The notes under the pieces: model-generated
Told to the model about the DNA's origin: nothing
Databases searched by the model: none
What the model saw: only the letters and a program-made list of their open reading frames with translations
NCBI GenBank assembly: GCA_963514005.1
Contig: OY740800.1
Location: 32,178,001-32,242,000 of the forward strand
DNA from: Raja brachyura
Lineage: Eukaryota
Reading direction: 5' to 3'
Length of the DNA stretch: 64,000 nt
Part shown: in pieces, positions 1 through 12,616 of the stretch
Layout: the number at the start of each line of letters is the position of its first letter
Position numbering within the stretch: the first letter of the stretch is position 1
Program-made: the position numbers and the translations under genes

Positions 1-2
1 GG

Positions 3-1079
3 TCCGCGCGGGAATCGCTCAGCTTCGCCGAGGCGGCTGGTAGCAACACATCGTCACAGTACCGATATTACCTCGACGAGGTACGGACTGCTGATAGGAG
101 CCTCAGAAGTTCCTTCGGGCGCGAGGTCTCTTACCTCCCACACACGCCCGATGAAGGGCGCTTGGATCGTATGGAGAGGATATTGGAGCAAGTTCTACTT
201 AATCAGAAACAGGACACACATAGCTCCAGGGGACTCATGGATATATCCCCGTCACCATCTATGGACAGCATAAGACCAGATGAGGAGGAAATCCTGGTAC
301 ATGCCCCAGCAGCACCTGAGGTCCCTCAGGAAGATCTGCTGGATGTGGCAGCCAAATTCGGGTTACCCGTATCATCAGGACAACCCCTCAACATCAAACT
401 GGCCGCAACCATAGATTACCTCACGAACCATCAACTGCAGGAGGAGGTCCTTGCAAAGGCCATGGAGAGACACAAGGCTCCAGGGAACTGCAATTCACTC
501 AACGTGCCAATCTGGGGTAATATCAGCCCGGGCATCAGAGCGCAGGAAGTGAAACTGCAGAGAATTCTAAAGCTACTTACGTCTGGGATCACCGCTTTTG
601 CAAAGTCGGTAGACGGGGTTGATCTAAGCATCGAACAGGAGGATGCTCTAGCTCTGCTCTGCAATACGCAGTACGAGATCAACGCTTTCAGGAAAAGCAT
701 TATAAAACCTTCATTGAATCCCAAATTTGCGGGACTATGCAGAGCACCTCCTACCCCCCCACCTAGACAGCTGTTCGGAGAAGACCTCCCAAAGCAGGTC
801 AAAGATCTGGATGACCATGCGAAAACCATAGGTCTGATGAGATCACATTTTGTGACCAGACCTTCGGCCAAGAAGACACCTTACTTCAGGCCACGAGGTC
901 AAACCGACAGGCCGACAAGGACCTACATTCCGGCACCTCCTCAATATCAACAGCCTCCTCAACCCAGGCCTTTTTTAGGGCTAGGCCCTCAGCGGCCAGC
1001 ATGGAAGATGCGGATTCCGCACCAACCACGCAACCCAGCACCTCCACGTCCCACCAAAAATCCCAGGGACCGCCGATAA
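3..1079 (+). CDS. DIRS gag-like ORF1 (5'-partial; frame open from position 3)
   Basis: No stop in frame from 3 to TAA 1077-1079; DIRS gag-like motifs IW..I...IR..E.KLQ and LFGEDL; Pro/Arg-rich C-terminus. Confidence 0.85.
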   Translation, partial: SARESLSFAEAAGSNTSSQYRYYLDEVRTADRSLRSSFGREVSYLPHTPDEGRLDRMERILEQVLLNQKQDTHSSRGLMDISPSPSMDSIRPDEEEILVHAPAAPEVPQEDLLDVAAKFGLPVSSGQPLNIKLAATIDYLTNHQLQEEVLAKAMERHKAPGNCNSLNVPIWGNISPGIRAQEVKLQRILKLLTSGITAFAKSVDGVDLSIEQEDALALLCNTQYEINAFRKSIIKPSLNPKFAGLCRAPPTPPPRQLFGEDLPKQVKDLDDHAKTIGLMRSHFVTRPSAKKTPYFRPRGQTDRPTRTYIPAPPQYQQPPQPRPFLGLGPQRPAWKMRIPHQPRNPAPPRPTKNPRDRR

Positions 1080-1081
1080 CC

Positions 1082-3010
1082 ATGAAGGTAAGGGGGTCTG
1101 GATTCCATGCACTTGCATGTCTAACTTCACGAGTTGGGGGCAGATTACGGGGATTTAAGGAGGCTTGGGAAACCATCACTTCAGATGAGTTTATCTTGCA
1201 AAGTATTCAGGGCTATGAGATTGAGTTTGTTCATGGCCAATTGCCTCCACCCCAGCATATGCCGAATCGCAAATTTGCACTTTCCAAAAAAGAATTGGCA
1301 GAAGGCTATGCTGAAATCTTGAGTTTACAAGAGAAAGGTGTGATAGAAAGAACCACACATGAACCAATTGAATTTGTATCCAATATATTTACTAAAACTA
1401 AAAAAGACGGTGGATGCCGGGTCATTATAGATTTAACTCACTTGAATACCTTTGTAAAATACACCCATTTCAAAATGGACACATTTGAAACAGCCAAATC
1501 TTTGATTTCGAAGGGCTGCTTCATGGCATGCATTGATTTAAAAGATGCATACTATTCAGTATCCATTCGGGAACATCATAGGAAGTTCTTGAAGTTTACC
1601 TGGATGGATCAGCTTTGGCAATACAAAGCATTGCCCAATGGGCTTACTACAGCCCCCAGATTGTTCACCAAACTACTCAAGCCAGTGTTATCTACACTGC
1701 GGAGACAAAATCATATGGTCATGGCCTATTTGGATGACATTCTGATAATTGGGCACACTCTGGAATCAGCAGAATTGGCGGTTTCAGCCACAGTGGAAAT
1801 TTTTCAAAAAATGGGGTTTATAATCCATCCAGACAAATCAAAGTTCCTCCCCGCACAGATCATGGACTACTTGGGGTTCACGATAGACTCCAATCGCATG
1901 ATCACCACCATCCCAACTAACAAAGTTGGTGATGTGTTTCAAGCATGCAAGAACCTGGTCTGCGCCAGTATACCGTCTATCAGATTAACTGCCAGGGTAA
2001 TTGGCAAAATTGTAGCAGTATTTCCAGCTGCTCAATATGGACCTTTACACTATCAGAATTTACAAAGGTCAAAAATAGCAGCATTAAAATTTAATGCTGG
2101 ACATTATGATAGACCTATGCAGTTGCCGGTTAAGGCAAAAATTGAGTTACTATGGTGGATTGGCAATATCCATAACTCATTCAAACCCATCATTGTGCCT
2201 CGTCCAATGGTATACTTGCAAACAGATGCAAGCTCCCATGGCTGGGGAGCTACGGACAACAACACCAGTTGTGGAGGTAGATGGGACTCACTTGAAGCTA
2301 CTTTGTTGTCAGCACAAGGGATAAACTATTTGGAGATGCTAGGAGCATTCCACGGACTAAGAGCCTATTGTTCAAACATGACTAACACTCATGTCCGTCT
2401 CCAAATAGACAATACCACTGCGGTGGCTTATCTGAATCATATGGGCGGTACCAGGTCAATTTCATGTGATGAATTGGCAAATATAATTTGGCTCTGGTGT
2501 ATTCAACGGAATATTTGGATCTCAGCTACCTACTTGCCAGGTGAGCTCAATACAGTGGCGGACACCAGGTCACGGAAATTCAATGACAACATCGAGTGGA
2601 TGTTGAACCCCCAAATATTCACCAAAATTACAGCCAAATTTGGTAAACCGGATATTGAGCTTTTTGCGTCACGGTTGAACCATCAGGTACCAACATACGT
2701 ATCATGGGAGCCAGATCCTGGGGCAATGGCGATGGACGCATTCTCGCTAGACTGGGGGAAATGGTTCTTCTATGCCTTTCCTCCATTCTGCCTCATCAGT
2801 CGGGTATTGCGGAAAATCCAGCTCGATGCTGCCAAGGGCATCCTCATTATACCCGACTGGCCTACGCAATCATGGTATCCGGTGGTCCTTGGAATGATAA
2901 GTCAACCATGGGTCCTCTTAGAGGGTTGCCCACAATTGGTGACGAACCCTGCCACAGGGGAACCACACCCCTGCTATAGTCACTTGAATCTATTGGCTTG
3001 CAGGATCTGA
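1082..3010 (+). CDS. DIRS Pol: reverse transcriptase, RNase H and C-terminal DNA N6-adenine methyltransferase-like domain
   Basis: RT motifs IDLKDAYY, LPNGL..AP, YLDD, YLGF; RNase H TDAS..GWG, INYLE, IDNTTAV, NTVAD; MT-like ELFAS...DAFS.DW...YAFPPF...PDWPTQSW. The ORF track starts at ATG 1001; ATG 1082 (ACCATG) follows the gag stop by 2 nt. Confidence 0.93.
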   Translation: MKVRGSGFHALACLTSRVGGRLRGFKEAWETITSDEFILQSIQGYEIEFVHGQLPPPQHMPNRKFALSKKELAEGYAEILSLQEKGVIERTTHEPIEFVSNIFTKTKKDGGCRVIIDLTHLNTFVKYTHFKMDTFETAKSLISKGCFMACIDLKDAYYSVSIREHHRKFLKFTWMDQLWQYKALPNGLTTAPRLFTKLLKPVLSTLRRQNHMVMAYLDDILIIGHTLESAELAVSATVEIFQKMGFIIHPDKSKFLPAQIMDYLGFTIDSNRMITTIPTNKVGDVFQACKNLVCASIPSIRLTARVIGKIVAVFPAAQYGPLHYQNLQRSKIAALKFNAGHYDRPMQLPVKAKIELLWWIGNIHNSFKPIIVPRPMVYLQTDASSHGWGATDNNTSCGGRWDSLEATLLSAQGINYLEMLGAFHGLRAYCSNMTNTHVRLQIDNTTAVAYLNHMGGTRSISCDELANIIWLWCIQRNIWISATYLPGELNTVADTRSRKFNDNIEWMLNPQIFTKITAKFGKPDIELFASRLNHQVPTYVSWEPDPGAMAMDAFSLDWGKWFFYAFPPFCLISRVLRKIQLDAAKGILIIPDWPTQSWYPVVLGMISQPWVLLEGCPQLVTNPATGEPHPCYSHLNLLACRI

Positions 3011-3987
3011 ACAGGCCACTACTTCAGTATGGTCTATCTTCAAGGACAATGGATACCATGGGAGCATCATGCAGGGAGTCCTCAAGACGGCAGTACTTAT
3101 CGCACATCAGGAAATGGGAATCCTATTGCGGCCGCATGGACGTTGCATATGACTCCGTCTCCATCACAGATGTGCTGGAATTTCTTGCGGGGCTACACCA
3201 TGATCAACATCTCAGCTATAGTGCCATCAATAGCGCCAGGAGTGCGCTATCGTCCTACCTCAATATTGAGGTAGGATCCAATAAATTGGTCTCCAAACTT
3301 ATGCGGGGGATATTTAATTCCAACCCGCCGAGGCCCCGTTACAACGTCACATGGGATATTGGTAAAGTACTGACCCTACTAAGAACGTGGTCACCCATGA
3401 CGGGGATCGAACTGGACAAACTCACCCTGAAGGTGGTGATGTTGATGGCACTTACTTCAGCACAAAGGGTGCAAACGCTTCACAAGGCCAAGATCGACAG
3501 AATGATCTCTACCCCTGAACGGGTCACTTTTTTCATTGATGAATTGCTCAAGCAGCATAGACCTGGGTTTACAGGGCTGCAGCTGGAGTTTCCAGCATAC
3601 CCCGCTGATGCTAGGCTATGCATAGCCACCCATATCCGCCACTATATCAAAGTGACGAGGAAAATAAGGGGAATGGAGCAATACCTGTTCATCAGTCACA
3701 AAAAACCTCACCATAGAGTGACGGTACAGACGATATCCCGATGGCTCAGGATCGTCTTAAACAAGGCAGGTATTGACACTGATGTTTTTGGGTCCCATTC
3801 CACCAGGGCAGCATCAACGTCGGCGGCAAGGGCCATGGAGGTGCCCATGGACCAGATACTTGCCACAGCGGGATGGGCCAGTGAAGCCACTTTTCAACGG
3901 TTTTACAACAAACCCGTCACCGTACATGGAATGTTCGCAGGAGCCGTGCTGGATGCAGGCCGAGAACATACAGTTACCCCTCAGTGA
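2998..3987 (+). CDS. DIRS tyrosine recombinase (YR)
   Basis: N-terminal core-binding region (Y...W..YC; SYSAINSARSALS); catalytic R (SAQR), HSTR, GW and Y (FYNK); overlaps end of Pol; true start uncertain (see splice finding). Confidence 0.93.
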   Translation: MQDLNRPLLQYGLSSRTMDTMGASCRESSRRQYLSHIRKWESYCGRMDVAYDSVSITDVLEFLAGLHHDQHLSYSAINSARSALSSYLNIEVGSNKLVSKLMRGIFNSNPPRPRYNVTWDIGKVLTLLRTWSPMTGIELDKLTLKVVMLMALTSAQRVQTLHKAKIDRMISTPERVTFFIDELLKQHRPGFTGLQLEFPAYPADARLCIATHIRHYIKVTRKIRGMEQYLFISHKKPHHRVTVQTISRWLRIVLNKAGIDTDVFGSHSTRAASTSAARAMEVPMDQILATAGWASEATFQRFYNKPVTVHGMFAGAVLDAGREHTVTPQ

Positions 3988-4132
3988 GGGGTCCTTTCTT
4001 GTTGTTATTAATAAATATTATTATTTTTTCAGAGAAACAGTGACGGAAATTGATTACTGCTGTCCACCTTTTCAGTAGCGTGTGTGATAGCATGGACGTT
4101 GTCCAGGGCGTGAAATCACAGAAGCTTTGAAG

Positions 4133-4475
4133 TCTTCACGAAGTCACTCACGTGACTCCGAAATGAAATAGTAAGATTAAACGAGAACTTACCAGTTTGA
4201 AGTTTGATCTTTATTTTATGAGGAGTTGCGATGAGGGATTTCGTGCCCTCCGCTCCCAACCCTCGATCATAAAGTCAACTGGTAACTAGAGTCTCTTCAA
4301 TCTTACTATAACAAGTCATTTCTTGGCTTGGTTTTTTTCTGTGATTCCACACCGCGGCTTTGAAGTATGTCGCGCATGCGTGCTGGCGGGTTCTTCACGA
4401 AATCCCTCATCGCAACTCCTCATAAAATAAAGATCAAACTTCAAACTGGTAAGTTCTCGTTTAATCTTACTATTT
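4133..4475. repeat. DIRS internal complementary region (ICR) and right terminal repeat
   Basis: 4166-4245 is the exact reverse complement of 4396-4475 (80/80). Confidence 0.92.
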
Positions 4476-4559
4476 TCCCAGTACTTTTGTTATTTCTTCA
4501 CGTGTGCCCGAGATTCCAGAATAGCCTGAACCCATGTTTTTATCCGTCAAAGAACGTGA

Positions 4560-5062
4560 GGCACGGTGGCACAGCGGTAGAGTTGTTGCCTCACAGCGCC
4601 AGTGACCCGGGTTCGATCCTGACGACAGTTGCTGTCTGTGTGGAGTTTGTGCGTTCTCCCAAGTGACTGCATGGGTTTTCTCCAGATGCTCCGGGTTCCT
4701 CCCACACTCCAAAGACATAGGGTCAAAAGGTCATAAGTGATAGGAGCAGAATTAGGCCATTCAGCCCATCAAATCGACTCCGCCATTCAATCATGGCTGA
4801 CCTATCTCTCCGTCCTGAACACATTCTCCTGCCTTCTCCACATAACCCCTGACACCTGTACTAGTCAAGAATCTATCTATCACTGCCTCAAAAAAATTCA
4901 TTGACTTGGCCTCCAAATAACATGCAGGTTTGTAAGTAAATTGGCTTCTGTAAATTGCCCCGAGTGTGTAAGATAGAACTGGCGTACGAGTGGTCATTAG
5001 CCAGCAGGGACCCTGTTGGCCGAAGGGCCTGTTTCTATGCTGAATCTCTAAACTAAGCCAAA
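4560..5062 (+). mobile_element. HE1-like tRNA-derived V-SINE interrupted by a minus-strand CR1 3' fragment (~4719-4915)
   Basis: tRNA-like head (GGTGGCACAGCGG / GGTTCGATCC), V-domain GGGTTTTCTCC..CTCCCACACTCCAAAGAC, CR1-like tail with (CTAAA)n. Confidence 0.85.
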
Positions 5063-5671
5063 CTAACAAGTCAGATCCATGCTATGACCACTCTGTTACT
5101 GATCTCATCTGACCTGTATAGCAATATATTTATATAGTCCTCCAAAGTTAGATGTTCTATTCTTCGCCCCCAAGGTCGACACTGAGTTAACCACATGTCT
5201 GTGATTTATTTTACTGCAAAACATTTGTTTTCCCTGAGGTTAAGAGGTAAGGAGAAATAAATAAGAAGAGATAAATGAAATTCTAAGGGATTGAGGCAGG
5301 GAAAGCTATTTCCCATGAAACACAAATCAAAATCAATGGGACGTAATCTTCAAAGTTACAGCCAGACCACTTTGGAACCAAACTAGGAAACACTTCCTCA
5401 GTAAATAGATCATGGTAATCGGATCCCTTCCTTCCTCAGTAGCCCATGGATGCTGCAGCTATCAATTGAGCCAAGATAGATTTTTGACAGAAGAAGAAAT
5501 ATATTCTCCATTAAAAGTCTGTCTCAGTTAGGATATGGATATGCAGCATGGATGGGTGGTTGAGGTTCACCAAGATAATGTATCAGTATCAAAAGGTTTG
5601 CGAATGATCCACTCTTATTCCAGTGTTTCCTGCAAAACACAGCAGCCAAGATGGACACATTATGAGAGAAG

Positions 5672-5835
5672 GATCAGGTGACGTTTCGGGTCGAGACCCT
5701 TCATCGGACTGAAGGGTCTTCACCTGAAATGTCACCTATTCCTTTTCTCCAGAGACGCTGCCTGACCCGTTGAGTTACTCCAACAGTTTGTGTTGATCTT
5801 CGGTGTAAACCAGCATCTGCAGTTCCTTCTTACAC
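5672..5835. mobile_element. Penelope-derived fold-back repeat
   Basis: GTGACGTTTCGGGTCGAGACCCTTC followed by an inverted arm; matches the repeat adjoining the GIY-YIG remnants. Confidence 0.75.
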
Positions 5836-5884
5836 ATAGGTCTTGGGGTTCTGTTAAGGACCAACTTCTATCTCTCACATTGAT

Positions 5885-6234
5885 TTACTGGTTAAAAGTA
5901 GTGTTTGGAGCACTTTGACACACTGCTGGGAAGATGAGAGAGAAATGTCCCATTCTGCACTGAATAGTCACAAATGAGTTAACGAATGGGCCGTTATCAA
6001 TAGTCTCGGTGTTCCATGGACAGGAACGGCCAGGGTTCCTGCTGCTGATTTCAAGTGATAGGATTCGGCTGGAAACCACATGTTCACGGAGTGTATATTG
6101 AGGGAGAGTTATCCACATCTTGTCCGGGCCCTCACAGCTCCAGACAGCCTTGGACACATCAGTACCGTTGGAACTGTAATCCAGAGAGTCAACACCTTTA
6201 AGGAAGAAGGGAATTCCTACAATGTAATAAGATC
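5885..6234 (-). CDS. Candidate terminal coding exon of an unidentified host gene (GSYYIVGIPFFLKG...NTTFNQ*)
   Basis: Non-repetitive; pyrimidine tract plus ATACAG|G acceptor at 6235; ~116 open codons to TAA; no family recognised. Confidence 0.45.
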
Positions 6235-6710
6235 CTGTATTTTGCAGAGGAAAATAGAGAGGATTGATGTGGCATTTATCTGATTTTAGTAACATTATAA
6301 CCCTTAAGCTCAGATTGCAATTGCCTTCGAAAAGTTCATAACAACAATTTTATGAGCTTTATAACAATGTTTTATACATCTCATCTGCAGACTGCTTAGA
6401 TGGAGAATTTTTGCTGCTAGTTTGTCTCAATGTTCCGTCACCAGTCTTTCTTTCTTAACATTGCTGTGTCTGGGTCCTAAAATACTTCTATTCTTTGTTC
6501 CTTACACACCCTGACGCTCTTCTGCACATGCACAAGCTTTATTTTCCTCTAGAAATAAAAATCAATAAATCTGCAGATGGTGGAAATCTGAAGTGAAAGA
6601 AGGGCAGGAAACTCTCATCAAGCCATGCAGCAACTGTGGGTGGAGAAACAGTCAATGTTTCAGGCCAGAGACCCTTCGAGGGAGGGATGATCATGTAATG
6701 GAAATCCTTA

Positions 6711-6884
6711 AGGGCCTGTCCCACCTGTACATCCCGAAATCCTGGGTCACCATGCACCATGCGCGCGTAATGCGTACCACGTGCGCATCACGATGCGCGC
6801 GTCATGCGTTGTGATGCGTAAATGATGTCGCGTAAATGATGTCGCGTAAATGACGTGCAAATGACGCCCAAGTGGGACAGGCCT
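6711..6884. mobile_element. PIF/Harbinger-type MITE
   Basis: TIR AGGGCCTGTCCCAC / GTGGGACAGGCCT; TTA target duplication on both sides; internal 15-bp tandem repeats. Confidence 0.85.
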
Positions 6885-7140
6885 TTACCAGTGTGTGGCC
6901 AGAATTGCCATGGGGCATAGAAGCTATAGATTAAGTCATCTGGTTGCTGTATCAACAGGGGAATGTTGGTGAAAGAAACGAGATAGAAACAGAGGAAGGG
7001 TAAAGCTGCAATATGCTGAGCTTTAGGAAGAACAGTTGCTGGCGAAGAGAGGAAAATATTCAATCTACGTTCTAGATGCATGACCTTTAGAAGATATAGC
7101 CAGTTCTGATACGATCCTATCTTAGCCCAGCTGCCTTCAA

Positions 7141-7285
7141 TGTTTAGGAAGGAACTGCATATGCTGGTTTAAACCGAAGATCGACACAAAATGCTGGAGT
7201 AACACAGCGGGACAGGCAGCATCTCTCGATAATCAAGAGATGCTGCCTGTCCCACTGAGTTACTCCACCATTTTGTGTCTATCTT
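7141..7285. mobile_element. Penelope-derived fold-back repeat (hairpin)
   Basis: GACACAAAATGCTGGAGTAAC..GGGACAGGCAGCATCTCT followed by its reverse complement after an ~8-nt loop. Confidence 0.8.
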
Positions 7286-7577
7286 TGCCTTATGGGCCTG
7301 TCGACTAGTTTGTTGCCACATGTTCGTCGGTGGTCGATATGCTGAAAACATTTTTGCGACAGTGGGTTTGACGCCAATGAGCGTAGCTTGACGTAAGCGC
7401 TGTTGTAGGTTGTTCGGCAACCTGCTATGACTATGACTGTCTCCGGCAGTTGTTTGCTTTCCTGCTGTTCAACAGTTGTCCATTTTATGGTGGACCAATG
7501 TGGTTTTGTCTTTTGTTACGTCTTTTGTTTTGTCTGTTGTTACGTGGCTGGTCCAGAAATGGAGGCTGCGAATACCG

Positions 7578-8150
7578 AATCACCAAGACCAAGCGTAGAC
7601 TGGGCGATAATTTCGCCGACACTAACGCTCAGGCTGTCTTGCCTATGTGTTCTCCTGGTTTCCAAACATTTTAACTCCCCTTCCCATTCCTATACTGACC
7701 TTTCTGTCTTTCCCATCCTGCATTGTCAGAGGCCACACCCAAATTGGAGGAACAGCACCTCATATTTCACTTGAGCAGCTTACAACTGAGTGTTATGAGC
7801 AGCTTACAAATGAATGTTAATTTCTCTAATTAACCCCTGTAACCCCTGTATTCCCTCTCTTCACCTTCCCCATCCTTCCACTGTTCCTTTCCTTGTATCC
7901 CTTTGTTGTCACCTCTTCCCCAGCCAACAATGGGCCATTATGGGCTCCACCCTTCCTTGGTCATCTGTTGCCGGCCCTATTTTGTTCAGGCCTTTTCTTA
8001 CCTCCAGTTCCCTACCCTCTACTTTCAGTCTGAAGAAGGGGCCAACCCAAAACATCGCCCAGCCATTTTCTCCTGAGATGCTGCCTGGCCCATTGAGTTG
8101 CACCAGCACTTTGTGTTAATGAACCAGCATCTGAAGTGCCTTCATACACA
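7578..8150 (+). mobile_element. Penelope-like element 3' remnant (GIY-YIG endonuclease C-terminus plus terminal repeat)
   Basis: Degenerate TKRRLGD.FA, V.KHFNSPSHS.TDLSV and KLEEQHLIF; followed by repeat with CTGAAGAAGGG core. Confidence 0.8.
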
Positions 8151-8179
8151 CTGGGAGTACAATAGTAGATTTTAGTTCA

Positions 8180-8470
8180 GTTTAGTTTAGTTTAGAGATT
8201 CAGGCCCTTCAGCCCGTCGGGCCGGCACTGACCAGCAATCCCCAAACACTACCACTGTCCTTCACACACTAGTGCCATGTTTACATTGATACCAAGCCAA
8301 CTAACCTACAAACCTGTACGTCTTTGGAGTGTGGGAGGAAACTGAAGGTCTTGGAGAAAGCTCACGGGAGAACGTAGAAACTCCGTACAGACAGCACCTG
8401 TTGTAGGATTGAACCTGGGTCTCTGGCGCTGTGAGGAAGTACTGTCGCTCCACTGCTGTGACACTGTGCC
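8180..8470 (-). mobile_element. HE1-like SINE
   Basis: (TTTAG)n tail, V-domain and tRNA head in reverse. Confidence 0.8.
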
Positions 8471-8964
8471 TCCCGTTATGGATCCAGATTGTGGAAATAC
8501 TTTACTCTTTATTAGGTAGTTCTGGCAAAACATCTCTACACATGCTTGTGTGTGTGGTGTATGCATGCATGGACCTGTGTGTTGGCATGTGTAAGTACGC
8601 ATACGAACATGTGTTTGTGTGCATGTCGGTTTGTGCGTGTGGATCTGTTTGTTGATGCATTTGTGCTGGCAGGAGAGCATCTCACCACACCGATATCAAA
8701 ATAGCCAGCTGTGCGCCTCTAAGAACCACTGCATCAAATGAAGCTGTGATAAAAATGTTTGAAAGAGTAAATCCTGCTGAGCTTCCTGTCAAGAGATGCA
8801 ATTGATTATTTTTTTAATTAGGAAGTTCATCACAGTGGGAGAGATGCCTGCCTGAGTTGTTGTGGCTGAACTCGGCTACATCAAAGCAGATCACATGCAC
8901 GTAGTTTCAGACAAGGTCTGTCCTGCCTTCTAATGTCATTCCCCACTCCCAGGCTCTACCATTT

Positions 8965-9265
8965 GGGCGGCACGGAGGCACAGCGGTAAAGTTACAGCGC
9001 CATAGACCCGGGTTTGATCCTGACTACGGGTGCTGTCCAAATGGAGTTTGTATGTTCACCCTGTGACTCCGTGGGTTTTTCCCCGGGTGCTCTAGTTTCC
9101 TCCCACACCCCAAAGACGTACAAGTTTGTAGGTTAATTTGGCTTCTGTGAGCTGTAAATTGTCCCGAGTGTGTAGGATAGTGTTAGTGTACGGGGATCGC
9201 TGGTCGGTGCTGACTCGATGGGCCAAAGGGTCTGTTTCCTCATTATATCTCTAAACTAAACTAAA
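8965..9265 (+). mobile_element. HE1-like SINE, full length
   Basis: GGGCGGCACGG head through (CTAAA)n tail. Confidence 0.85.
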
Positions 9266-9967
9266 CGTTGGGCCAATAGTCCTGAAGCAACATGGTACTA
9301 CATAAAGGTGCTGATTAGTTCTGTTGAATTCACATATTTAAAGATGGTTGTTTTTATTGATTCATGTATTGACAACTTGAGCTATCGAGCATAATCTTAA
9401 TTGCTATAAGAATATAAGAGCACAAGCAAAAGATGCCAGAACAGGCCATTTGGCTAATGTAGCTATATTGCTATTCAATAAGAAGTCCTTAATCTTGTCT
9501 GTGTCCTAAAATATTTCTATCCTGTCTTGCTTATGTTCTTCTGTAACAGGCACATATTTTACTTTCCTTAAGAAATAAAAAATCAAGATTGTAGAAATGT
9601 GAAATAAAAGAAATGATGCAAACACACATCAAGTCAGGCAGCATCTGGGGGAGAGAAACAGTCAACATTTCAGGTCAGAGACCTTCAGGAGAGGGATGGA
9701 TCAGACAATGAAAATCCGTAACAGGATGTGGCCAGAATTACCCTGGGGATAAGCTGCAGATGAAGATGAGGATAATCTTCAAAAATCCATTTTCTCTCTC
9801 GAATACTCAGTAATTTAGCCACTGGGAACTCCGTGAAAAGAGGATTCCAGAGATAATGGGTGATGGTTTTTCAGTCTTTGCACCGTTTTAAACTTTATTG
9901 ATGTGATCCGATGATCCTTTGAGCAAAATAGAACAATATTTTAGAACTACGCGACTGATATAAAATT

Positions 9968-10412
9968 GAATGAATGAATGAATAAGTTTATTGGCCAATC
10001 ATTCACATACAGGAATTTGCCTTCGTGCTCCGCCCGCAAGTGAGAACGAAATACAGTGACAGTTAGGAATGACCCATACAACATTAAACATTAATAATAA
10101 AACAATATTGATTAAACATGTGAATTAAATAAAATACCAGAGCAAAAGGAGGCTACAGATTTTTGGTTATTGAGTAGAGCTACTACTCGTGGGGGAAAAA
10201 AGCTGTTTTTATGTCTGGCTGTGGCAGCTTTGACAGCCCGGAGTCGCCTTCCAGAGGGAAGTGATTCAAAGAGTGTGTGGCCAGGGTGAGAGGGGTCAGA
10301 GATGATCTTACCCGCTCACTTCCTGGCCCTTGCAGTGTACAGTTCATCAATGGAGGGAACAACCAACAACCATCTCAGCTGATCGGACGATTTGCTGCAG
10401 CCTCCGGATGTC
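9968..10412 (-). mobile_element. Rex1/Babar-like LINE 3' fragment
   Basis: Reverse translation gives LPSGRRLRAVKAATARHKNSF; AATAAA and (ATTC)n tail. Confidence 0.75.
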
Positions 10413-10633
10413 GACCTTGGTTTCACATCTGCCGTAATCTTGGGTAGAGGTGCCCCAGCCCTTATCCTAAGCAACCAAAGGGCAGCACTGATGCATCACC
10501 CTGCATATATTGCTAAGCAACGTTGCATCCATGTGGATAATGCTCTGGTGCTTAAAGCCATACCTGCGATGACTGCATCACCAGGCTCTACTGAGGCCCG
10601 TCACAACATACCTGTCAGGCCCTCCATTCGTTT

Positions 10634-10835
10634 TGTGTAGGAAGGACCTGCAGATGCTGGTTTCAACTGAAGATAGACACAAAATGCTGCAGTAACTCAG
10701 TGGGACAGGCAGCATCTCTGGAGAGAAGGAATGAGTGGTGTTTCGGACTGAACATGGGTCTCGACCCAAAACGTCACCCATTCCTTCTCTCCAGAGATGC
10801 TGTCTGTCCCGCTGAGTTATTCCAGCATTTTGTGC
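10634..10835. mobile_element. Penelope-derived fold-back repeat
   Basis: Two inverted arms of the same repeat family. Confidence 0.8.
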
Positions 10836-11239
10836 CTTTCCCCATTCGTTTTCACCCACTTATCATCCTAGTGTCCAATTCAACCCATTCATGCTGTCCA
10901 CATGCATCAACTGCAGTGCAGATAACTCCACCATTGCTTGTTCCCTCCTCAAACCAAAAAACCATACCTCGAATAAAAACGTCCTCACTTATTTAACCAA
11001 CATTGCAGCATGTTTCATTTCATTTCAGCAGTCTGAAGAAGGGTATCGACCCGAAACATCGCCCATCCTTTGAACATTCTTTTCCCCATCCATTTGCCCA
11101 GCTGGCATTTTGCCTCAAAATCCAACTCAGGACTCCACTGCCTCGCAATTCTCCTCTATTTTGACTCTCAAACAAATATTGCAAATTGTCAGACTTTCTC
11201 TCTTTACCCTGACCCTTTCTTTCGTGATTTGAACACTTA

Positions 11240-12616
11240 AACCCCTGTCTCACGGTGCGAGTTGGCCCACGAGTGACCCCGAGTTTTCACTCGTGGTGAT
11301 CACGTACAGCCAACGTAGTGGGAACGTCGGAACTCGCGCGATCAACTTGTCCACTCGTGCCGCTAACGGCATGTACCTGTGAAACTTGTGAACTCGTGAA
11401 AAAAGTCAAACATGTTTGACTTTTTCCACGAGTCAAGTTTCGTGGTCAAGTTTAAAATTGAAACATTTAAACTCAGAGTTATATCGTAGTGGCCCGTGCG
11501 TTAAGTTTAGTGATTCGTGCGTCTACCGTGGGAACTCTTTAATAGACACAAAATGCTGGAGTAACTCAGCGGACCAGGCAGCATCTCTGGAGAGAAGGAA
11601 TGGAGTCGAGACCCTTCTTCAGACTTACCCAAAACGCCACCCATTCCTTCTCTCCAGATATGCGGCCTGTCCTGCCGAGTTACTCAAGCATTTTGTGTCT
11701 ATTTATACTTTAGTTTCGGATATGATCAAGTGTAAGAAACGCAAACCAGACTACCTTCACATCAGAAAATCCTAATGTTCCTAATTTAGCCGAGGCACTT
11801 CACTGTCCGTGTGTAGGAAGGAACTGCAGATGCTGGTTTACACCGACGATAGATACAAACATGCTGGAGTAACTCAGCGGGACAGGCATCGCATCTGGAG
11901 AGAAAGAATGGGTGATGTTTCGGGTCGGGACCCTTCTTCAGACTCCCCGCTCTTTCTTCCCTCGTCGATGTGAACTTGTGGGGGTGCGAGGAATCGGGCG
12001 TCGCTGGGTAAGGGGAAGAGAGGTTTTACTGCTGAATTATGCGCAACAGAGGCATGAAGTGGGGGTAAGGTCCGTTTAAACTATCTTGTCGCCCCCCCCC
12101 CCCCCCCCCCCGCAATGTTGGGAGAGAGAGGGAAGAGAGTTGTGCAAACAAACCACGGGAGACTGCATCTTTGGAGGGAAATCATAAAATGTATAGGGAT
12201 GTTTTGGGCCGGGACCCTAAAGGTTGACTACCCGTTTCGCAGATGCCGTTCCTAGCCCCCCTCTCACTCCTCCCCACCCATAGTCTTTGCCTTCTCCCAA
12301 TTCCACCATCCCTCGCCCCCCCCCCCCCCCCCCAAACCTGTCCTCGCCTGAACTGCTGAAGATAACCGAGTGCTTTAAATGCGAATCCCGGACTGCGGCA
12401 ACAACACACGCCCTGAGCGGGAGAGGAACTTGGTAATTCAAGAGCAAACGGGAGGGGAACTTGGTAACTCTGGAGACGATCTCGGAACATCGCAGATTAC
12501 CATACCCGTGGGAACTCGCCTCAAACACTTGCACATCAACTTGGAATATCGTACACAACCACGAGTCTGTCACTCTGGGTCACTCGTGTGTCAACTCGCA
12601 CCGTGAGACAGGGCCT
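11240..12616. mobile_element. Non-autonomous Harbinger-type DNA transposon with nested fold-back repeats (~11541-11702, ~11809-11943)
   Basis: ~45-bp imperfect TIRs CCTGTCTCACGGTGCGAGTTG..CACGAGTGACCC; TTA on both flanks. Confidence 0.8.

Follow-up and report, generated by a model that had tools for sequence, protein, structure and literature searches.

DIRS elements are widespread retrotransposons whose recombinase often occupies a frame lacking a start codon, and the way in which this enzyme is expressed is unsettled. The question is raised by a locus in Raja brachyura, on a stretch of 64,000 nucleotides (nt) from contig OY740800.1 of assembly GCA_963514005.1 (positions 32,178,001 to 32,242,000, forward strand; hereafter the window), which carries an intact and young DIRS1-like retrotransposon with a total length of 5348 nt when flanking contig is included. 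Its tyrosine recombinase (YR) frame reaches its first in-frame ATG at 3049. The comparison of splice motifs, codon phases and related elements described here suggests two linked steps: a splice that would remove pol and open the YR frame, which we hold to be very probable, and a -1 ribosomal slip near the end of gag, through which the spliced RNA would give rise to a Gag-YR fusion, a reading to which we assign a probability of roughly three in four. The features involved, in window coordinates, are the following.

1 to 1079, plus strand: 3' part of gag (open reading frame (ORF) 1); the whole gag of the window copy has 583 codons and begins at an ATG 673 nt upstream of window base 1
815 to 3010, plus strand: pol reading frame, with a reverse transcriptase (RT) recognized as Pfam RVT_1, E 3e-22
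971 to 977, plus strand: gag-frame slippery heptamer T TTT TTA (peptide RPFLG), where a -1 slip would lead into the pol frame, open from 815
1077 to 1079, plus strand: gag stop TAA, read from the sequence
1082 to 1084, plus strand: ATG in the pol frame; intact sister families have ACG or TTG here, and the codon is probably not required
1085 to 1093, plus strand: predicted 5' splice site AAG/GTAAGG, GT at 1088-1089, phase 0 in the pol frame
1088 to 3003, plus strand: predicted intron of 1916 nt, holding the coding sequence for RT, RNase H and methyltransferase
2659 to 2979, plus strand: open stretch of the YR frame, ending at TAG 2977-2979
2777 to 2799, plus strand: FPPF motif, acceptor site of most invertebrate families; the window reads FPPFC, without AG
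2993 to 3004, plus strand: predicted 3' splice site TTGGCTTGCAG/G, AG at 3002-3003, then GAT; phase 0 in the YR frame
3004 to 3987, plus strand: YR exon, 327 codons, with Pfam Phage_integrase (E 6.5e-8) and a SAM-like domain

In the proposed mechanism, one promoter would serve three proteins: Gag, Gag-Pol and Gag-YR. The unspliced RNA would be the template and would yield Gag, plus Gag-Pol through the -1 slip at 971-977; the spliced RNA, with the pol intron out, would yield Gag, plus Gag-YR through the same slip. The heptamer is predicted to place slipped ribosomes in the pol frame 37 codons ahead of the donor, and the joining of 1087 to 3004 lets the codon phase of pol continue into the YR frame. 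The Gag part would carry both enzymes into the particle, and the window family would splice as its sister families probably do. Predicted sizes for the window copy are 583 amino acids (aa) for Gag, ~914 aa for Gag-YR, and ~1230 aa for Gag-Pol. A preliminary description of the locus had already proposed the splice, and its positions prove exact throughout (TAA 1077-1079, CC, ATG 1082-1084, GT 1088, AG 3002-3003, phase 0), as does its remark, confirmed in the sequence, that YR has no in-frame ATG before 3049; the heptamer was overlooked. Its idea of a splice switch survives as regards the removal of pol to open YR, which agrees with conservation, acceptor shifts, a RefSeq model and pol-less copies, and is not supported, as a general route, as regards the shared ATG from which both enzymes were to be translated.

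Clustered at 80% nucleotide identity, the 80 metagenome loci, 12 host loci and the window that make up the comparison give 60 families; a fourth host family (L154-L163), together with further relatives, was considered apart from this set. The donor test covers 52 families (eight of the 60 were dropped for too short a 5' flank), the acceptor test 49 (11 dropped, YR start unmapped), and the FPPF count 47 (two more dropped as frameshifted). The slip tally covers 47 families with separate frames, five further families in which gag and pol are fused into one ORF being counted apart. For 120 YR and 120 Pol homologues, the N-termini gave nothing beyond leads, their starts being set by automatic gene calling.

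The matches to AG/GTRAG within window positions 1-4475 are only two, the donor at 1088 and another at 2541. The donor motif is identical in 30/30 copies of the window family and the acceptor motif in 28/30, the other two being unreadable; the copies are ~99% alike and are thus not independent evidence. Across families, the donor test took the best-scoring donor in the 150 nt upstream of the first conserved pol motif, at phase 0 and with at least 4 bits, and such a donor was found in 37/52 families, as opposed to 4/507 equal windows inside pol and 1/52 windows on the gag side, while 1000 codon shuffles gave a mean of 2.9 and a maximum of 10. A three-way phase test was discarded, a phase-2 GTRAG being a stop in pol; since the open pol frame bars phase 2, the fair contrast is that of phase 0 with phase 1, which stands at 37 to 4 families. 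The donor lies anywhere from 18 to 108 nt upstream of the pol motif, in a peptide that is not conserved, and constraint on the protein therefore offers no explanation for it. The phase-0 donor is retained in four of the five fused families. A separate observation concerns fused families L080, L104, L112 and L115, which display two donors 5 nt apart (GTGAG/GTAAG), the upstream one lying in another phase, where it might yield Gag alone.

Taken alone, the acceptor of the window scores 1.4 bits on an untrained weight matrix, a weak value, and it rises above chance because of the comparison with relatives, not by its own sequence. An AG at exactly this position is present in only 10/47 families, at first sight a refutation; conservation across families, which the preliminary description had looked to, holds for the phase-0 donor and not for the acceptor position, the other families having candidate phase-0 acceptors elsewhere. 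In 34/47 families, an AG in phase 0 for YR stands right after the pol motif FPPF, ~215 nt upstream of the window position, and in 10 of these the TAG of the acceptor marks the very point where the YR frame opens. An upstream extension of at least 60 open codons is found in the YR frame of 38/49 families and in the third frame of 1/49. Each of the 13 families without the FPPF acceptor has another phase-0 YAG (hand-picked) further downstream where the YR frame is open; six of these sites coincide with that of the window, others lie at -72, -81, -201 and -204, and one scores <1 bit. In eight of these 13 the YR frame closes no more than 30 codons from the domain, as against 0/34 families with the FPPF acceptor. 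On a quick pol tree, the acceptor position changes label six times, and the families with the window-type acceptor, three from the host and three from invertebrates, group as a single clade. Donor and acceptor alike agree with spliceosomal GT-AG introns in consensus, conservation and phase.

Within the window itself, the in-phase CAG at 2797-2799 runs into the stop at 2977-2979, and the open stretch from 2659 to 2979 is likely what is left of the longer overlap that relatives have. A YR-frame stop ~25 nt upstream of the acceptor is found in the window (2977-2979) and in L062, L068 and L075, being TAG, TGA or TAA by family, and is absent before the acceptor of the L154 family; it may form part of a branch-point motif or guard against a cryptic upstream acceptor. 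Branch-point-like motifs were noted in some families, by eye only and with no control.

The second step, the slip at the end of gag, is suggested by the distribution of strict heptamers (TTTTTTA/C or AAAAAAC). Such a heptamer lies in the gag frame in 41/47 families with separate frames, in the pol frame in one and in the third frame in two; the upstream region, used as control, has it in 1/45, and families whose gag and pol form one ORF in 0/5. In 37 of the 41, the heptamer is located inside the open pol frame and upstream of the gag stop. Six decayed host copies combine a shortened T run with a broken or unreadable pol, which fits a role as slip site and is no proof of it.

It is at this point that the most serious alternative arises. 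It accepts the splice but lets ribosomes terminate at the gag TAA and resume translation at ATG 1082 (ACG or TTG in sister families), giving Pol and YR free of Gag and with the same first two residues. The spacing TAA-CC-codon-codon-donor is constant in all host-genome families read, and the ATG is present in the window family, in the L062 group (6/6) and in an L205-type family. ACG and TTG are moreover near-cognate start codons, here in good context. Set against this, the codon at the position of 1082 is ACG in 10/10 copies of the closest intact sister family and TTG in 4/6 copies of another, an ATG lies within 3 codons of the donor in just 3/37 families, and the three invertebrate members of the window's own clade are without it, so that one ATG serving both Pol and YR by termination and reinitiation, as first proposed, is not supported as a general arrangement. 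Restart would also leave unexplained the heptamer in 41/47 families, its absence from 5/5 fused families, and a pol frame that stays open from the heptamer to the gag stop. The likelihood of restart at 1082 as the route to Pol and YR is thereby lowered, and we consider it unlikely; the ATG may add some Gag-free product, which the slip mechanism does not need.

A product of the proposed kind appears among gene models. RefSeq model XP_072015819.1 joins a Gag ending in KGE to the YR extension, without RT, and its joint unites the predicted donor with the predicted acceptor 72 residues before the YR domain. A search for long Gag-YR proteins gave 16 matches, one of which has the exact predicted joint and none of which comes from a transcript contig. 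Two others, P0253 and P0255, are Gag-YR elements of a different layout: single ORFs of ~1420-1430 aa that begin Gag-like, continue in the frame overlapping pol and end in YR, with a long overlap in which Gag-YR would need no splice. Their Gag-like part gave no match to the comparison Gag set.

Genomic copies that lack pol provide a second line of evidence. A degenerate junction motif has 91 matches in the host genome and none for the reversed control, and in 23/23 distinct places examined gag-side sequence runs straight into YR, with no pol in between. The copies form three groups, 76-88% alike around the joint, and in 17 full-length copies of their relatives the points of the joint are GT and AG, 1915-1918 nt apart. 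A single clade of pol-less copies is rejected (p-AU 1e-38) and the starred branches of the tree force three changes, which suggests at least two origins of the joint. The tree left out nine of 14 full-length relatives: six decayed copies in which the T run is shortened, pol is broken or unreadable and the acceptor cannot be read, and three of a further subfamily, which retain both splice sites. By motif, 88 of the 91 matches belong to the largest group, an amplified non-autonomous family that counts once. The pol-less copies would derive from spliced RNA; the loss of precisely the predicted intron is seen as DNA in sister families, subject to the caveat of a 4-nt microhomology discussed below. 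As an observation apart, the amplified Gag-YR family without pol (e.g. L171-L198) includes several copies that keep the internal complementary region (ICR) and the right terminus, and it descends from a lineage with a shortened T run at the gag end.

Several points weigh against the combination of splice and slip. The evidence for the splice consists of motifs with their phases, their conservation among families, and the pol-less copies left by sister families, all of it at the level of DNA. Contigs of four sequencing runs, not on record as RNA, were aligned to window 1-4500, and the 1087/3004 joint was absent from 15 of the 30 resulting joints, which speaks neither for nor against the splice. 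XP_072015819.1, whose sites are those predicted for families with in-frame gag-pol, is a gene model whose RNA support is not visible, and other models among the 16 long matches join the pieces differently. Splice-site scores come from approximate, untrained weight matrices; family counts overstate independence, the families being related; and nine of the 46 inner branches of the pol tree are open. A strong phase-0 best donor is absent in 15/52 families. The region following the heptamer folds with a mean z of -1.16 and a median of -0.46, the control giving -0.57 (n=37), and with a z of -1.2 in the window, so that no clear stimulatory structure emerges from these 37 families and the window (pseudoknots being outside the scope of the calculation). 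A bias in serine codons at FPPF-S (33/34 AGY) had been entertained as a sign of splicing and was rejected, the codon class being inherited and not independent.

The remaining points of this kind lend themselves to a different explanation, namely that there is no functional splice, that a second -1 frameshift, out of pol and within the overlap, gives access to YR, that the splice-like motifs are pol codons, and that the pol-less copies are microhomology deletions. YR does lie in the -1 frame of pol, and both acceptors fall within conserved pol codons (FPPF-S and C-R). The ends of the joint share 4 nt (AGGT) in the families with pol-less copies, on account of which a microhomology deletion would give the same joint; pairs of at least 4 nt within 300 nt of the two sites number 1181, and the motif search could detect this joint only, and not other deletions of pol. 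Finally, the exact spliced junction of the window family was found 0 times in host genome DNA, as opposed to 635 occurrences of the unspliced donor 26-mer. We nevertheless regard this explanation as very improbable, considering that a strict heptamer is present in the pol/YR overlap of 1/49 families and any general heptamer in 7/49, with none in the 28-nt overlap of the window; that the donor is conserved even though its region is not conserved as protein; that the acceptor TAG is itself a YR-frame stop in 10 families; and that the same pol-less joint appears to have arisen at least twice.

The 13 codons between the pol stop and ATG 3049 show 37 synonymous and 31 non-synonymous codon differences in the YR frame, and two synonymous differences in each of the other two frames; one intact host family has no YR Met until codon 105, and in 21/49 families the YR frame is open without any ATG up to the start of the domain. 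YR translated from ATG 3049 only, the finding by which the preliminary description had agreed to be refuted, is ruled out by the coding-type change upstream of it and by the intact family devoid of an early Met. For these same reasons a separate short mRNA for YR, made by splicing a leader donor to 3004 or from an internal promoter and translated from ATG 3049 or 3058, has very little likelihood, even if a strong donor occurs in the 5' leader 42-64 nt upstream of the first gag-frame Met in four host families (6/7 loci gave a result) and in three of four host families a Met is found 16-18 codons after the YR exon begins, given that a leader donor-acceptor pair is found in 0/26 invertebrate families and that the pol-less copies retain gag and use the donor after it. 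The leader itself holds an intron-like unit of ~55-60 nt (CAG/GTAAGT ... TTCCACAG), located in L031 at 3264-3323, 64 to 4 nt before the gag ATG, and also seen in L164, L165, L166 and L168-L170; it lies upstream of the window and is retained in all copies read.

The reading that combines splice and slip could apply beyond the skate family. We think it reasonably likely that animal DIRS1-like elements share a mode of expression with two switches, in which one -1 frameshift or an in-frame gag-pol fusion makes room for an enzyme behind Gag, and alternative splicing decides whether RT or recombinase takes that place; in which the acceptor has repeatedly changed its place within the pol/YR overlap; and in which spliced RNAs seed non-autonomous Gag-YR families. 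According to this proposal, the overlap would be long in some families and short in others because the acceptor has shifted repeatedly.

Both steps have counterparts in other retroelements. Retroviruses and long terminal repeat (LTR) elements employ -1 gag-pol frameshifting, for example HIV-1 at U UUU UUA, the same heptamer as in the window element, likewise near the gag end and with pol in the -1 frame; unlike in retroviruses, a single slip would here feed two enzymes chosen by splicing, with no clear stimulatory structure. Spliced retroelement mRNAs include those for retroviral and gypsy env, foamy virus pol and copia gag, and avian retrovirus env shares the first gag codons. There, as proposed here, regulated splicing of one genomic RNA removes pol and the unspliced RNA is the template; in contrast to those systems, the spliced product would be the integration enzyme, fused to the end of an almost complete Gag, and both termini would remain on the spliced RNA, which could re-integrate (91 copies).

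Published DIRS1-like elements (Piednoel 2011, PMC3266345; Gazolla 2022, PMC9210276) are described, in the available portions of these articles, with the same gag, RT/RNase H/methyltransferase and YR frames, inverted termini, a length of ~5.3 kb, and two internal complementary regions that overlap at the circle junction. The same portions describe the ORF overlap and do not give a translation route for YR or mention splicing (‘splic’ occurs 0 times in each), and it is in the pol intron and the gag-end slip site that the present proposal departs from them. The sole earlier proposal for YR expression that was traced, in partly available text, is a programmed frameshift from pol in Ngaro-like elements (Poulter and Butler 2015, as quoted in PMC13003380). 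As far as that text goes, these elements likewise have a YR frame that is -1 relative to pol, overlaps its end and is without a dependable start; they differ in belonging to another superfamily, with split direct repeats, while the DIRS1-like overlap holds slip sites in 1/49 families and has conserved splice sites. DIRS elements are further reported, in the accessible part of PMC3783388, to encode no protease. No description of a pol intron with frameshift expression in DIRS elements was found in the literature, including the available portions of PMC7192593, PMC9341512, PMC4495291, PMC4157794 and bioRxiv 10.64898/2026.05.21.726589, and an earlier mention may exist in the main DIRS reviews. 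What is proposed here would be a new expression variant within the known DIRS family.

A pol intron together with a gag-end slip would account for the variable ORF overlap by which DIRS elements have been described. If the proposal is true, host splicing would set the ratio of RT to recombinase, and a route is provided by which non-autonomous families arise; the exact junction and the protein sizes that it predicts can be tested.

The assignment of the element rests on its ends and domains. The remaining features are located as follows.

873 nt upstream of window base 1, plus strand: element left end, from the window plus flanking contig
4133 to 4245, plus strand: ICR, of which 4133-4169 corresponds to the 5' terminus and 4166-4245 to the 3' terminus
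4366 to 4475, plus strand: right inverted terminal repeat and element right end

The element belongs to the DIRS1-like retrotransposons because it combines inverted termini and an ICR with Pfam RT and YR domains, a tyrosine recombinase (Phage_integrase and SAM-like) standing in place of a DDE integrase. The inverted terminal repeats have 54-nt arms that are 91% complementary (5' end and window 4366-4419). The two halves of the ICR overlap at the circle junction: 4133-4169 complements the 5' terminus exactly, and 4166-4245 is complementary to 4396-4475. A Ngaro-like or PAT-like identity was rejected, the termini being inverted repeats with an ICR and not split direct repeats, and no long direct repeat of the element is present in window 1-12000. 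The window part of gag has no Pfam match; within pol, a Dam-like methyltransferase is weakly indicated (E 0.006, below the Pfam cut-off), and RNase H, for which the window protein gives no Pfam match, is assigned by position, homologues and knowledge of the family. The best-matching copies are ~99% identical, and the donor-region 26-mer counted above recurs exactly in the host genome. Beyond the right end, at 4561-4720, 5664-5837 and on to 12000, the window contains dispersed short repeats resembling short interspersed nuclear elements (SINE-like), many of them arranged as inverted pairs.

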